This document shows positions 3,633 to 30,579 of a stretch of 64,000 bases of DNA, one piece after another. The first letter of the stretch is position 1; each line of letters begins with the position of its first letter. The DNA comes from Gammaproteobacteria bacterium. GTDB taxonomy: Bacteria > Pseudomonadota > Gammaproteobacteria > Eutrophobiales > Eutrophobiaceae. The position numbers were made by a program, and so were the translations under genes. Below the pieces are notes generated by a model. It searched no databases. It saw only the letters and a program-made list of their open reading frames with translations, and was not told where the DNA came from. The stretch is taken from contig OZ244905.1 of assembly GCA_965221695.1 (NCBI GenBank), positions 320,001-384,000 of the forward strand, in the 5' to 3' direction.

Positions 3633-4920
3633 GCTCCGCGTCAGCCACCAGCGCCCCGGCGCTTTCGTTATACTGCTTGACCAGCACAGTCATTATGCTG
3701 TTGGGACGGTGAGATTCGCCCGAAACCGCGATGGCTGTGCGCAAGTAATTTGGGGAGTAGCCGAAACGGACCTTTTTTCCGTTAATTTCTCCTGTATTGC
3801 TTTCAACCAGGATCTCGAAGCGCCGGCCCACATAGCCGCGCATATAGTCATGTTTCATCTGCGCAGCCAACTGCAGCAATTGCGCGCAACGTTGTTTCCT
3901 TAGCTGGCGCGGCAGTTGTCCCGGCAACAGGGCTGCCCGTGCGCCGGCGCGGGCTGAGTATGGAAAAACATGGATATGTGGAAACCCGATTTCCCGACAA
4001 AAATCCATGGTTTGCCGCCATTCTTGTTCGGTTTCGCCAGGAAACCCGGCGATAATGTCCGTGCTGATGTTCAAGTCAGGAACCCGTTGTCTGAGCCGCT
4101 CAACCAGCTTGATAAACTGCTTAGGTTTGCAACGCCGGCCCATGCGCCGCAATACGCTGTCACAACCGCTTTGCATGGGCAGATGCAAGTGAGGCATAAA
4201 TCCAGGTTCATTGAACAGTTCAAAAAAGTCTTCACCGATATCCCAAGGCTCCAGCGAACCTAGTCGTAATCTGGGAATCTTGGTTTCAGCGAGGACCGTT
4301 TTGATCAATGCCGGCAGGTTGGTTCCCAAGTCATGTCCATAACCGCCGATATGCACGCCGGTCAGAACTGCTTCCTGGATCTGATATGAGTGTAATGCAT
4401 TGATCTCCTCAACTATCTGCCTGATTGTCCGGCTGCGCTCCGCGCCCCGGGCCAGCGTGACAACGCAGAATGCGCATCGATGCCGGCAGCCGTCCTGTAT
4501 CTTGATGAATGCCCGGTTGCGCCCCCGGCTGAACAGGGCAGTTGTTCCCGGTTCTGTGGTTGCATTCGGCATGGTCTTCAAGTCCAGCCGTTGTGTTACG
4601 ATATCCGTCAGGCGATCCTTGTCCTGGTTGTCCACGACCAGGTCTATGCCCGGCAATTGTTTGACTGCGTCCGGATGCAGGCTCGAATAACAACCGCTGA
4701 CCACCAGCTTGGATTGTTTGTTGCTTCGCCGGATGCGCCGAATCAACTGCCTGGATTTTTTCGCCGCCTCACAAGTTACCGCGCAGGTATTGACGACTAT
4801 CAGGTCGGCATCTTCCGTGCCTGTGGTCAACTGGTTTCCCTGCGCCTGGAAAGCCGATGCCCAGCGTTCCAGTTCGGCCTCGTTCAGGCGGCACCCCAGC
4901 GCTTTAAGCGCAACTTTCAT
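3571..4920 (-). CDS. mtaB: tRNA t6A37 methylthiotransferase MtaB
   Basis: [26 protein letters not shown] radical SAM motif, HVFPYSAR. Confidence 0.9.
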
Positions 4921-6070
4921 AGTTCTCGATGGTCGCGCGCGCGATGATCAGCTTCTGTATCTCGGAGGCGCCTTCATAGATGCGTAGCGCGCGTATTTCA
5001 CGATACAGTTCTTCCACTTTTTCGCCTCGCGTTACGCCACGCCCGCCGAATAATTGGACCGCCTGATCTATGACCTGCTGCGCGGCTTCGGTTGCATGCA
5101 ATTTTGCTATGGCGGCTTCCCGCGTGATACGTTCCACCACGCAGTCCCGGGTCCAGGCGGCACGGTACACCAGCAGCGCGCTGGCATCGATAGCCACAGC
5201 CATGTCGGCAAGCTTGCCCCGGGTCATCTGCATATCTGCAAGAGTTTTGCCAAAGAGCTGCCGTGTGTTGGTGTGTCTGAGCGTTTCTTCCAGCGCACGC
5301 CGGGCGAAACCCAGCGCCGCAGCGCCAACGGTTGAGCGAAACATGTCTAAAGTGTCCATGGCTACTTTGAAACCCTCTCCGGGGCTGCCCAGCAGGTTTG
5401 TACTGGGAACCCTGCAATCCTTGAATTCAAGCCGGGCCAGGGGGTGGGGCGCAATCACTTCGATGCGCTCAGCGATTTCCAGGCCCTGTGTGCCGGCATC
5501 GACAATGAAGGCGCTGAGGCCCGCTGCGCCGCTTTCCTCACCGGTTCGGACAAACAGGGTATAAAAATCGGCGATACCGCCATTGGACACCCATGTCTTC
5601 TCGCCATTGATGATGTAGTCGTCGCCATCCGGCGTGGCTGTGGCGCTCAGCGCCGCGACATCGGAACCGGCCGCGGGTTCGGACAAGGCAAATGCAGAAA
5701 TCTTCTCGCCTTTGCGGACCGCAGGAAGGCGAGCGTTTTTTTGTTCCTGGTTCCCAAACAGCGCGATAGCGCCGCTGCCCAGTCCTTGCATTGCAAAAAC
5801 AAAATCAGCAAGACCGGAATGGCGCGCCAGGATCTCACGGATAAGACATAATGATCTGACATCCGGAGAGTTGTCGGAGTCGGGCGCCGGCGCGGCATGA
5901 TTGAGCCAGCCGCCGTCAGCCAGGAGTTTTACCAGTCTCTTGCAGGTCTGATCGACATTATCCGGATGCCGGCCGTTCAGTGCGCGCCTGGCCCACTCAT
6001 CCAGTTCAGTCGCCAGCAGTCTATGCTGATCCGTAAAAAAAGGCCAATCAAGAAAACTGTGGTCAATCAC
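4904..6070 (-). CDS. Acyl-CoA dehydrogenase (abm-cluster type)
   Basis: [40 protein letters not shown]-terminus typical of those linked to anthraniloyl-CoA monooxygenase. Confidence 0.9.
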
Positions 6071-29075: not shown

Positions 29076-30579
29076 AAGAATAAAGCACAAACCGCATCCT
29101 GGACAAAGCCCGACAGCAGAGGAAGCCGGTCGAGCTTTGATGTTCAAGCCAATCAAACTCGGGGCTCTCACCCTGGAGCAGCGCACCTGGGTGCCGGCGA
29201 TGGTGCCATGGCGCTCCAACGAGGACGGTTTCGTCACCGATGACGTGCTGGACTGGTATCAGCGTTTCGCTCAAGGACAACCAGGGGCCATCGTCATCGA
29301 GGCAACTGGCATTCGGGATATTCCCAGCGGGCCGTTGTTGCGTATCGGCGATGATCGATTTATACCGGGATTGAGGGAGCTGGTGGATGTAGTGAAATCA
29401 GCAAGCAACGGAAAAACCCGCCTGTTGATACAAGTGATCGACTTTCTGACTATACGCCGACGGCCGGATCCGGCTAAATATTTCTCCCGTTTTCTGGTTA
29501 TTACAGACCGTCACAGGGCAATACTGAACGCCCATGATTGGCCGGAAGAACGCGTTAGGACACACTTGGCCGAGTTGCAGGATGAGGAGCTTGACGGGAT
29601 TTTAACTGAAAGGGAACTGGAGACGCTGCGTATGGGATATCGGGAGCGGGTCACTGACCTGCATCTGCCTCATATCAGAAACCTACCCCAGACAATGCCT
29701 GAGCTGTTTGCCCAGGCCGCGCGGCGCGCGATGGAAGCAGGAATCGATGGCGTAGAACTCCATTACGCCCACGCCTACACAATGGCGTCATTTCTGTCCG
29801 CAACCAATTCCCGTAATGACGGTTACGGCGGCAACCGGGAACAACGCGCGCGCCTGCCCCTGAAAACCTTCCGACATGTGCGCAATATGGTTGGCTCCGA
29901 TTATTGTGTGGGCTGTCGCTTTCTTTCCGATGAATGCATCGAAGGAGGCAGTGACGTCGACGATGCCGTGTATTACGCGGTGGAATTTGCGCGGGCAGGC
30001 ATGGATTTTATTTCTCTCTCCCGGGGCGGCAAATTCGACGATGCCAAACAACCGCAAATTGGTTGGGCTGCCTATCCTTATACGGGGCGCAGCGGCTATG
30101 AATGCATGCCTGGCTACATCTCCGATAAAAAAGGTCCTTTTGGCAGAAACATTGAGCCGGTTGCCCGCATCAAACTAGCCATCAATAACGCGGGATATGC
30201 CACTCCCGTAGTCGTCATCGGCGGTTTGCACGGATTTCAACAGGCTGAGACGCTACTGCGCGAGGGAAAGGCGGATATTATCGGCGCCGCCCGTCAGAGC
30301 CTTGCCGACCCTGACTGGTATCTCAAGCTCAAGTTAGGCAAGGGCGACCAGATAAGAGTGTGCGAATATACCAATTACTGCGAAGGGCTGGATACAAAAC
30401 ACAAGCAGGTCACCTGCCAGTTATGGGACCGGTTGTATTTTAATGAGCCAGGGGTTAAATTATCGATTGACGGGCGCCGCCGGCTGCTCGCTCCTGAATG
30501 GGCAGACCTGCCTGATGCGCTTCCGAGCGCCCGGCAAGCGTCCGCAAAAGACGCGCCGGCAAAGACATTCGGCAAATAG
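29059..30579 (+). CDS. NADH:flavin oxidoreductase (old yellow enzyme family)
   Basis: RTWVPAMVPWR, ELHYAHAYTMASFLS..N.R.DGYGG, ARQSLADPDW; alternative start 29140. Confidence 0.85.
   Translation: MWKPPERIKHKPHPGQSPTAEEAGRALMFKPIKLGALTLEQRTWVPAMVPWRSNEDGFVTDDVLDWYQRFAQGQPGAIVIEATGIRDIPSGPLLRIGDDRFIPGLRELVDVVKSASNGKTRLLIQVIDFLTIRRRPDPAKYFSRFLVITDRHRAILNAHDWPEERVRTHLAELQDEELDGILTERELETLRMGYRERVTDLHLPHIRNLPQTMPELFAQAARRAMEAGIDGVELHYAHAYTMASFLSATNSRNDGYGGNREQRARLPLKTFRHVRNMVGSDYCVGCRFLSDECIEGGSDVDDAVYYAVEFARAGMDFISLSRGGKFDDAKQPQIGWAAYPYTGRSGYECMPGYISDKKGPFGRNIEPVARIKLAINNAGYATPVVVIGGLHGFQQAETLLREGKADIIGAARQSLADPDWYLKLKLGKGDQIRVCEYTNYCEGLDTKHKQVTCQLWDRLYFNEPGVKLSIDGRRRLLAPEWADLPDALPSARQASAKDAPAKTFGK

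Follow-up and report, generated by a model that had tools for sequence, protein, structure and literature searches.

A 26-kb gene island at 4904–30579 of the 64,000-nucleotide window analysed here (the whole stretch of DNA, contig OZ244905.1, positions 320,001 to 384,000, of the gammaproteobacterial assembly GCA_965221695.1) is interpreted, with moderate confidence, as a modular catabolic island conserved in its genus. It would have an iad-type core for indole-3-acetate (IAA) or very close arylacetates and three accessory modules: a tryptophan tryptophylquinone (TTQ) amine dehydrogenase, an AbmA-type aryl-CoA monooxygenase with its partners, and a glutaconyl-CoA decarboxylase (gcd) operon. The iad-type IAA module is likely on sequence grounds, its continuation through the AbmA module is backed by independent genomes, and feeding by the TTQ amine dehydrogenase is plausible. 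It is unproven that the Na+-pumping step belongs to the same route, and the way the modules are distributed partly contradicts this. The island looks like a kit of linked modules, and a single pathway formed by all four is unproven.

The island is real and is kept across the whole genus; its clustering is not due to chance. Each of the 22 other species searched in the genus has the core, and flanks are shared in relatives. It is bordered by a MiaB-like radical-SAM gene on one side and by dksA-smc on the other, and both flanks could be mapped in three of the six relatives examined for synteny (G005, G008, G010, G012, G018 and G019; the source genome is G000). Orthologues of the Rieske alpha subunit alpha-1 (82–91% identity), of gcdA (79–91%) and of the acyl-CoA dehydrogenase ACAD2 are present in 22 of 22 species. 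The distance between gcdA and alpha-1 is at most 9 kb in 18 of them, and in the other four, all fragmented assemblies, the two genes are on separate contigs. The TTQ light chain of the window type (82–92%) is found in 20 species, not in G005 and G010, and alpha-2 directly follows it in 18 of these 20. AbmA (77–82%) is present in 14 of 22. Among 18 genomes of the same family or class but of different genera, none has an orthologue of alpha-1, gcdA or AbmA.

Open reading frame (ORF) listing and Pfam/NCBIfam scans recovered every gene named for this region in the original prediction, which had been made from the letters and their ORFs. Its inventory stands with corrections: there is only one beta subunit for the two alphas, a DUF485/ActP transporter pair lies inside the iad-like operon, an Old Yellow Enzyme (OYE)-type gene follows alpha-2, and rplM-rpsI is found mid-island. 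On the minus strand, gcdA, a 42-aa ORF, gcdB, the biotin carrier, ACAD2, SDR1, ECH and ACAD1 form one tightly packed string (SDR, short-chain dehydrogenase; ACAD, acyl-CoA dehydrogenase; ECH, crotonase-family protein). The plus strand carries RidA, rplM-rpsI, the AbmA-like gene, alpha-1, beta, DUF485, ActP, the ligase, the thiolase-like gene, DUF35 and SDR2; these are followed by an Nramp-like gene on the minus strand and by a plus-strand string of TTQ heavy chain, TTQ light chain, alpha-2 and OYE2. The remaining genes of the window are housekeeping genes (ligA, nadB, degP, lepA, lepB, era, rne, plsX and others). The features of the island are as follows.

4904..6070, minus strand: ACAD1, putative acyl-CoA dehydrogenase, AbmA-module partner; Pfam ACAD domains, 58% identity to the colinear ACAD of the Azospirillum iad-abm operon.
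6063..6971, minus strand: ECH, putative crotonase-family partner of AbmA; PRK08258 469 bits (cut-off 330), 65% to the Azospirillum homologue.
6899..7663, minus strand: SDR1, putative short-chain dehydrogenase, AbmA partner; adh_short 203 bits, 51% to the SDR after AbmA in Azospirillum.
7710..8867, minus strand: ACAD2, glutaryl-CoA-dehydrogenase-like, tied to gcd; NF045552 430 bits (cut-off 470).
8881..9102, minus strand: GcdC-like biotin carrier, 73 aa; Pfam Biotin_lipoyl 62 bits (cut-off 22).
9120..10223, minus strand: GcdB, Na+-translocating decarboxylase beta subunit; OAD_beta 518 bits, TIGR01109 493 bits (cut-off 191).
10232..10360, minus strand: 42-aa hydrophobic ORF, possible GcdD/OadG-type anchor; 62–68% identity in G005, G008, G010, G018 and G019.
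10376..12109, minus strand: GcdA, glutaconyl-CoA decarboxylase carboxyltransferase; 743/704 bits to 1pix_A/3gf3_A, next family 142 bits.
12235..12633, plus strand: RidA-family enamine/imine deaminase; Ribonuc_L-PSP 78 bits, 59% to the RidA ending the Azospirillum iad-abm operon.
12862-13711, plus strand: rplM-rpsI housekeeping pair, inside the island between RidA and AbmA.
13901..16294, plus strand: AbmA-like flavoprotein, 797 aa, putative aryl-CoA monooxygenase + OYE-type reductase; NF006101 1032 bits (cut-off 1078), 46% to the Azospirillum homologue.
16571..17884, plus strand: Rieske alpha-1, IadD-like; 460 bits to IadD 7yls_B, pocket 9/9.
17966..18466, plus strand: Rieske beta, IadE-like; Ring_hydroxyl_B 111 bits, 36–38% to beta subunits of iad loci.
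18467..18766, plus strand: DUF485 membrane protein, YjcH-like ActP partner; Pfam DUF485 40 bits.
18690..20318, plus strand: ActP-type cation/monocarboxylate symporter, probable importer of arylacetate; NF006903 693 bits (cut-off 750).
20319..21968, plus strand: acyl-CoA synthetase, IadF-like; 48%, colinear with the Sulfitobacter and Azospirillum iad ligases.
21955..23121, plus strand: SCPx-type thiolase-like protein, IadG-like; Thiolase_C_1, 53% to the Sulfitobacter homologue.
23082..23558, plus strand: stand-alone DUF35 protein (zinc ribbon + OB fold); zf-ChsH2 and OB_ChsH2_C, 38% to the N-terminus of the 415-aa Sulfitobacter DUF35-SDR protein.
23633..24364, plus strand: SDR2, IadJ-like; 48% to the last SDR of the Sulfitobacter iad operon, 53% to Azospirillum.
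24446..25795, minus strand: divergent Nramp-family transporter; NF037982 63 bits (cut-off 50).
25921..27165, plus strand: TTQ heavy chain, lipobox-like signal (...FLTGC); Me-amine-dh_H 171 bits.
27222..27740, plus strand: TTQ light chain, Tat signal (SRRSFLQ); 158 bits to the aromatic amine dehydrogenase (AADH) small subunit 2agl_D.
27756..29075, plus strand: Rieske alpha-2, IadD-like, lacking a beta gene of its own; 409 bits to IadD, pocket 7/9.
29059..30579, plus strand: OYE2, OYE-family flavoprotein; Oxidored_FMN 132 bits.

Two listed starts are probably too far upstream. That of ECH would lie about 30 codons further downstream, since the PRK08258 match begins at residue 32, and that of OYE2 about 27 codons downstream (the database copy has 479 aa).

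Both alpha subunits had been predicted to be IadD-like, and IadD is by about 250–300 bits their closest solved structure: alpha-1 scores 460 bits and alpha-2 409 bits to 7yls_B/9o71_A, against 150–168 bits at best for other solved Rieske oxygenases. The entry 9O71 is IadDE of Variovorax paradoxus CL014, and 7YLS is an earlier structure, 98.4%/100% identical to CL014 IadD/IadE (preprint 10.1101/2025.10.25.684584). The IAA pocket of IadD consists of N210, L211, H216, H221, F251, H311, K322, R329 and Y362 (PMC10374108); these positions were scored from pairwise alignments to IadD and from a MAFFT alignment of 55 alphas. All nine residues are kept in alpha-1 and in 5/5 of the orthologues examined. 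In alpha-2, seven of the nine are kept, among them the basic residues K322 and R329, and the changes L211V and H311Q recur in 4/4 orthologues. The canonical iadD clade itself retains 8/9 in 37 of 40 rows and 9/9 in the other three. Paralogues from other contexts have changed F251 and K322 (a4 and a Variovorax plasmid paralogue) or K322 alone (a3), and in three distant Rieske alphas from this genome only 3–4 of the nine remain.

A quick IQ-TREE phylogeny with SH-aLRT support only was computed from 55 of the 98 gathered rows; the 43 rows left out are near-duplicates of the canonical clade and one further alpha-1 orthologue, and Variovorax IadD itself is not among the rows. This comparison, proposed with the original prediction, placed alpha-1 and alpha-2 as sister clades (joint SH-aLRT support 99) in a clade of their own, outside the sampled canonical iadD clade, which includes Sulfitobacter, Bradyrhizobium, Azospirillum and Granulosicoccus. 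The tree gives no resolution for the branching among the alpha-1/alpha-2 clade, the canonical clade and two further lines of paralogues. By these comparisons the oxygenases are IadD-like in their predicted pocket and fold family, yet they form a distinct clade. The Variovorax paradoxus 2u118 plasmid alpha was rejected as an IadD reference: it is a paralogue, adjoined only by a beta subunit and an SDR, and groups with a4. Another IadD-like alpha, 44.9% identical to alpha-1, is found at 16357-17643 of the Pseudomonas resinovorans plasmid NC_004444.

The genes downstream of the oxygenase point to the same system. A Sulfitobacter plasmid carries the canonical string MarR, PDR-type reductase, alpha, beta, ligase, thiolase, DUF35-SDR fusion, cyclase and SDR, an order that fits the iadC–J order and roles as far as they are set out in the preprint (10.1101/2025.10.25.684584). 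The ligase (48% identity), thiolase-like protein (53%), DUF35 protein (38%) and SDR2 (48%) are colinear with this operon, and the ligase, thiolase-like, DUF35 and SDR genes singled out in the original prediction correspond to colinear homologues of IadF, IadG, the N-terminal part of IadH and IadJ, respectively; the role of IadF as the ligase is described in the same preprint.

On the basis of these homologies, a route can be proposed for the core. The acid would be imported by the DUF485/ActP symporter, and the indole ring would be oxygenated by alpha-1/beta in the manner of IadDE, as suggested by homology and the pocket residues, with a reductase encoded elsewhere. In line with the roles described for Variovorax, SDR2 (IadJ-type) would oxidize the hydrated product to dioxindole-3-acetate, the IadF-type ligase would form the CoA ester, and the thiolase-like protein with DUF35 (IadG and the N-terminal part of IadH) would release acetyl-CoA, leaving isatin or dioxindole. 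This release could be a retro-aldol-type cleavage of dioxindole-3-acetyl-CoA, comparable to the reaction of steroid side-chain aldolases. Enzymes encoded outside the island would open the ring and form anthranilate. Among the accessory modules, the periplasmic TTQ dehydrogenase, which comes with alpha-2 and an OYE flavoprotein, may convert an arylethylamine (e.g. tryptamine) to the arylacetaldehyde; AbmA, SDR1, crotonase, ACAD1 and RidA may dearomatize anthraniloyl-CoA; and the third module would comprise a glutaryl-CoA dehydrogenase-like ACAD and the Na+-pumping glutaconyl-CoA decarboxylase.

The link between the iad-type core and the AbmA module has support from independent genomes. The N-terminal part of the AbmA-like protein matches VioD (178 bits) and its C-terminal part OYE (288 bits). 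Its score to NF006101, a model named for salicylyl-CoA 5-hydroxylase, is 1032 bits, under the cut-off of 1078, and homology leaves the substrate unfixed. The companions expected of AbmA (crotonase, ACAD, SDR and RidA) are all present, and the set is colinear in Azospirillum, in G005 and in the outside iad loci L047, L046 and L088, so that the association of AbmA with these partners, noted in the original prediction, extends to genus relatives and beyond. In Azospirillum thermophilum, the plasmid NZ_CP029358 carries, in one direction, MarR, IorA, IorB, PDR, alpha, beta, ligase, SDR2, AbmA, SDR1, ECH, ACAD1, thioesterase and RidA; the iad-abm proteins of this plasmid are 38–65% identical to those of the window.

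A survey outside the genus covered the best 80 of 561 confirmed iad loci, ranked by likeness to the Sulfitobacter alpha; many of these 80 end at contig ends, and the neighbour counts are lower bounds. Genes of abm type lie at most 10 kb from iad in at least 10 of the 80 loci, all of other taxa. L047 has the full abm set and a second ligase, and the set is almost full in L046 and L088; ACAD1 is carried by five Bradyrhizobium loci, with or without RidA; L067 has RidA alone, and L068 an AbmA fragment at the edge of the locus. ACADs that are 58–63% identical to ACAD1 are found near iad in eight of the 80 loci. The joining of iad and AbmA modules, as originally proposed, is thus also seen in the Azospirillum plasmid and in ten of the 80 outside loci, in taxa that include Azospirillum, Rhodobacteraceae, Oricola, Rhizobiaceae and partly Bradyrhizobium. 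The link is real, recurs in unrelated bacteria and is not special to this organism. In the library searched, we found no publication linking the aerobic iad pathway to AbmA; the supplementary tables of iad-like loci in PMC9613470 and PMC11630574 may already show abm-type neighbours. Two iad papers name 2-aminobenzoyl-CoA, only for the anaerobic iaa route. Genes for an IorA/IorB-type 2-oxoacid:ferredoxin oxidoreductase are present in 21 of the 80 iad-type loci and in the Azospirillum iad-abm operon (L021). We infer that IorAB at iad loci could convert isatinate (2-aminophenylglyoxylate) directly to anthraniloyl-CoA.

Several observations weigh against an IAA island of this kind, or against the unity of its modules. 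The first concern the oxygenases: alpha-1 and alpha-2 fall outside the 40-row canonical iadD clade (SH-aLRT 100), and the canonical Sulfitobacter alpha scores 558 bits to Variovorax IadD, against 460 and 409. Others concern missing parts. A PDR-type IadC is not in the island, the best match in the genome having 26% identity, and candidate FNR-Fer2 reductases are found elsewhere, at genome positions 195401, 866147 and 190253. The SDR half of IadH was found neither in the island nor, with these queries, in the genome; IorAB is not in the island, and the genome-wide search suggested with the original prediction gave no match at E 1e-8; there is no MarR regulator in the island, and the MarR matches of the genome are weak and distant. 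The sole IadI-like cyclase (36%) lies 1.7 Mb away among unrelated neighbours, and none was found in 4 of 15 genus genomes with alpha-1, one of these four being 88% complete. No ligase of the genome reaches the cut-off of the benzoate/anthranilate-CoA ligase model TIGR02262 (best 314 versus 375 bits). At least four steps have no gene in the island: the oxygenase reductase, the opening of the isatin or dioxindole ring, the conversion of isatinate to anthranilate and the activation of anthranilate. The original prediction had already stated that an aldehyde dehydrogenase, an isatin hydrolase and an anthranilate activation step are not in the window. This is correct for the window; in the genome, there are at least six aldehyde dehydrogenases, the distant IadI-like cyclase and a candidate ligase (below).

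The distribution of the modules weighs in the same direction. Homologues of TTQ, GcdA, GcdB, ACAD2, ActP, OYE2 and Nramp adjoin none of the 80 outside iad loci. The TTQ and gcd links are conserved only within one genus and have no independent support, because species of one genus are not independent and none of the outside loci has them; the co-occurrence in relatives that had been expected holds within the genus and, for these two modules, stops there. G008 and G010 keep gcd beside alpha-1 without any abm gene. G019 has SDR1, ECH, ACAD1 and RidA without AbmA (none at E 1e-100) and also lacks ActP, all other parts of the island being present. In G005, the abm module (SDR1, ECH, ACAD1, AbmA, RidA) is located 430 kb from gcd.

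It is possible, though doubtful, that the island is a mosaic of unrelated modules gathered at an integration-prone site between the MiaB-like gene and dksA: iad-like genes for IAA, gcd and ACAD2 for glutaryl-CoA derived from glutarate or lysine, TTQ for an unrelated amine, and AbmA for anthranilate or salicylate from other sources. The module content varies freely at this site. G008 is minimal (ACAD2-gcdCBDA, alpha-1, beta, ligase, thiolase, SDR2, TTQ, dksA); G010 lacks TTQ and alpha-2, G012 lacks alpha-2 and OYE2, and G005 has gcd adjoining alpha-1 and carries alpha-2 without TTQ; ActP is in the island of two of the six relatives (G018 and G005) and was not found in that of G008, G010, G019 and G012; G018 has extra insertions of 5–15 kb. 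The single-copy rplM-rpsI pair, preceded by a strong promoter-like site at 12801-12829 (11/12 matches), has entered the island of this genome alone; five relatives have rplM either on a different contig or about 0.7–0.9 Mb from the island, and their islands lack the pair. A scan for promoters and terminators was uninformative (13 promoter-like sites versus 14.9 expected). There are also 23 matches to Rieske alpha in the source genome (3.5 Mb), up to about 40 in relatives, and four TTQ pairs in the source genome, so neighbourhoods of this kind would often be expected; the genus appears to be specialized in catabolism by oxygenases and amine dehydrogenases. Two findings speak against a mosaic: the iad-AbmA pairing recurs in Azospirillum, Rhodobacteraceae, Oricola, Rhizobiaceae and partly Bradyrhizobium, and in 18 of 20 species alpha-2, with K322 and R329 kept, is the next gene after the TTQ light chain.

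The gcd operon is genuine, as had been proposed. The identity of GcdA is unambiguous on its 743-bit match, GcdB reaches 493 bits to TIGR01109, and a biotin carrier is encoded between GcdB and ACAD2; the 42-aa GcdD-like ORF has no Pfam match and is conserved in relatives. ACAD2 adjoins gcdC in G008, G018, G019 and G012 and remains below the equivalog score of NF045552, the Desulfococcus-type glutaryl-CoA dehydrogenase (430 versus 470). A glutaconyl-CoA decarboxylase paired with a glutaryl-CoA dehydrogenase is linked to strict anaerobes.

The original prediction joined all four modules in one continuous pathway, from tryptamine through indole-3-acetaldehyde, IAA, isatin and anthranilate to anthraniloyl-CoA, and from there through AbmA and alicyclic CoA esters to glutaryl-CoA, glutaconyl-CoA and crotonyl-CoA, with Na+ export as the last step. 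The iad-AbmA part of this proposal has gained support, and the proposal as a whole is unlikely. That gcd is kept without AbmA implies that it does not depend on AbmA, which weakens gcd as the end of the AbmA route: gcd and ACAD2 are in all 22 species and AbmA in 14, gcd adjoins alpha-1 without abm in G008 and G010, the abm module lies elsewhere in G005, and no gcd or ACAD2 homologue stands beside the abm-carrying iad loci outside the genus. By our chemical reasoning, simple ring hydrolysis of the AbmA product would give 4-oxo-pimeloyl-CoA, which has no direct way to glutaryl-CoA, and enzymes for four intermediate steps are missing from the island. The idea of gcd as the end of the route nevertheless stays alive, because in G000, G018 and G019 the strand of gcdA-D-B-C and ACAD2 continues downstream, without a break, into SDR1, ECH and ACAD1 (with gaps or overlaps of less than 50 bases in G000). 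SDR1 and ACAD1 also match enzymes acting on alicyclic acyl-CoA esters, though below threshold (161 bits to BadH and 235 bits to cyclohexane-1-carbonyl-CoA dehydrogenase). Passages of PMC4539516 and PMC3534580 describe what becomes of the AbmA product only as beta-oxidation, which leaves room for glutaryl-CoA. In G019 (3007548-3015429, L032/L033), the presence of the partners without AbmA may reflect a recent loss or an AbmA-independent role.

A candidate anthranilate-CoA ligase for the same pathway is encoded at 2842998-2844617 of the genome and is 52% identical to the ligase that L047 has among its abm genes. This ligase and AbmA occur, or are absent, together in 13 of 16 genus genomes (both in nine, neither in four, AbmA only in one, the ligase only in two), although these genomes are kin and the small ones lack both. 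The candidate ligase gene sits in a cluster (2837000-2851400, L118) with caprolactamase-like alpha/beta genes, an amidase (PRK07235, above cut-off), a thiolase, a second ligase and a FadB/J-like gene; this cluster may serve lactam or amide degradation, which speaks against the single pathway.

Returning to the modular island with an iad-type core, the TTQ module is its plausible entry. The light chain aligns with both TTQ tryptophans, is cysteine-rich and has a twin-arginine translocation (Tat) motif, and the heavy chain has a lipobox-like signal. A TTQ heavy/light pair with export signals is therefore present, as originally proposed; its assignment to the aromatic-amine type is marginal, the light chain scoring 158 bits to AADH (2agl_D) and 152 to the best methylamine dehydrogenase (MADH), a margin of 6 bits, and the heavy chain showing no preference (161 bits for MADH, 159 for AADH). 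There are four TTQ heavy-light pairs in the genome, with the chains directly adjacent in each. No mauE-, mauD- or mauG-type genes adjoin any of the four; the only MauG-like (genome 1518216) and MauE (2382575) genes lie apart from them. A role of alpha-2 and OYE2 as MauG substitutes in TTQ maturation was ruled out, as G008 and G012 keep the TTQ orthologue without them. The TTQ protein of a sister genus (G024) was also rejected as a clue to the substrate: the heavy chains are 35–36% identical and are not orthologues.

Amine dehydrogenases placed beside downstream catabolism are a pattern in this genome, because two other TTQ pairs also adjoin catabolic genes. The pair at 2435286-2442900 (L120) is followed by homologues of isovaleryl-CoA dehydrogenase, methylcrotonyl-CoA carboxylase beta, methylglutaconyl-CoA hydratase and carboxylase alpha, a liu-like cluster that may be a route for a branched-chain amine. 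The pair at 2983100-2992200 (L123) lies with IclR, a fatty-acid-desaturase/AlkB-like oxygenase, a 450-aa protein, a TonB-dependent receptor and a 452-aa Rieske-domain protein. From this gene context, it is plausible that each TTQ pair acts first on an amine and that the genes beside it degrade the product; here the amine would be an arylethylamine yielding the substrate of the IadD-like oxygenases.

The least likely explanation, improbable in our view, is another arylethylamine/arylacetate pair as substrate (phenylethylamine/phenylacetate, tyramine/4-hydroxyphenylacetate or a halogenated analogue), as the alphas lie outside the canonical clade, two parts that act on indole-derived products (IadI and the SDR half of IadH) are missing, and the name AADH covers aromatic amines in general, with the light chain only 6 bits closer to it; against this, alpha-1 keeps all nine IAA-pocket residues where the paralogues from other contexts have changed F251/K322 or K322, and RidA and AbmA suit an amino-substituted ring. 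The template for such a route is the ibuprofen ipf logic, with CoA ligation, Rieske dioxygenation and acyl-CoA side-chain removal by a thiolase/DUF35 pair. The selectivity of the IadD/E pocket also argues against it: IBA and IPA are not turned over and 4-Cl-IAA is handled less well (PMC10374108).

Two further genes deserve mention. The Nramp-like transporter lies between the iad-like and TTQ strings in five of the six relatives mapped (G018, G005, G010, G019 and G012) and may carry an organic substrate instead of a metal. OYE2 belongs to a family of about 485 aa with generic annotation only; members with 67–85% identity and 457–522 aa are found in records of metagenome-assembled genomes (MAGs) of gamma- and alphaproteobacteria.

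That the island encodes a complete aerobic route, leading from indole-ethylamines via IAA and anthraniloyl-CoA to glutaryl-CoA with Na+-pumping glutaconyl-CoA decarboxylation last, is improbable on the present data. If true, glutaryl-CoA would be the end point of the lower part of the aerobic 2-aminobenzoyl-CoA pathway, which has long been unresolved, and a marine bacterium would have taken an energy-conserving decarboxylase associated with strict anaerobes into an aromatic pathway that depends on O2. IAA serves as a signal between bacteria and algae or plants, and degraders of the iad type alter that signalling. The island extends the iad system by a distinct oxygenase clade, another kind of transporter and other accessory modules. 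The repeated pairing of iad with AbmA suggests that IAA breakdown in several lineages goes past anthranilate via anthraniloyl-CoA; it offers a concrete hypothesis on the reactions that follow AbmA, which are still unsolved, and, by our reasoning, on isatinate to anthraniloyl-CoA as the task of IorAB at iad loci. The iad system is already known; the island is a variant of it, and its main value lies in testable hypotheses on the fate of anthranilate after iad and of the AbmA product.

Among known systems, the iad locus of Variovorax paradoxus CL14 and Bradyrhizobium, described in PMC9613470, PMC10374108 and 10.1101/2025.10.25.684584, resembles the island in its IadD/E-type oxygenase and IAA pocket; an IadF-type ligase, an IadG-type thiolase-like protein, DUF35 and an IadJ-type SDR follow in the same order in the island. 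The island differs in the separate clade of its alphas, in lacking IadC, IadI, the SDR half of IadH, IorAB (IadA/B-like) and MarR, in having an ActP/DUF485 symporter instead of ABC or TRAP uptake, and in having a second alpha with no beta of its own and TTQ, AbmA and gcd genes as neighbours. With the Azospirillum iad-abm operon (and L047, L046 and L088) it shares alpha, beta, ligase, SDR2, AbmA, SDR1, crotonase, ACAD1 and RidA. In Azospirillum the genes run in one direction as a single operon, which also includes IorAB, a PDR-type reductase, MarR and a thioesterase but no thiolase/DUF35, whereas the window has its set on both strands, without IorAB, PDR or MarR, and linked to gcd and TTQ.

The 2-aminobenzoyl-CoA pathway of Azoarcus evansii (AbmA/ACMR; PMC4539516 and PMC3534580) has in common with the island the two-domain FAD monooxygenase + OYE reductase and the crotonase, ACAD and SDR, a likeness judged from descriptions and not from the Azoarcus sequence; the island differs in having no adjacent anthranilate-CoA ligase. 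The AADH of Alcaligenes faecalis (PDB 2agl) and the MADHs share with the TTQ module the heavy/light pair, both TTQ tryptophans, the cysteine-rich light chain and the Tat signal, whereas here no mauE/mauD/mauG-type genes are adjacent and the heavy chain has a lipobox-like signal.

The gcd module has its counterpart in GcdABCD of Acidaminococcus fermentans, with which it shares GcdA (743 bits to 1pix_A), GcdB, the biotin carrier and a small membrane ORF. ACAD2 is closest to the model of the non-decarboxylating glutaryl-CoA dehydrogenase of Desulfococcus multivorans, yet scores 430 bits, below the 470 of that model. Here, gcd is found in a bacterium rich in O2-dependent oxygenases, beside an aerobic pathway.

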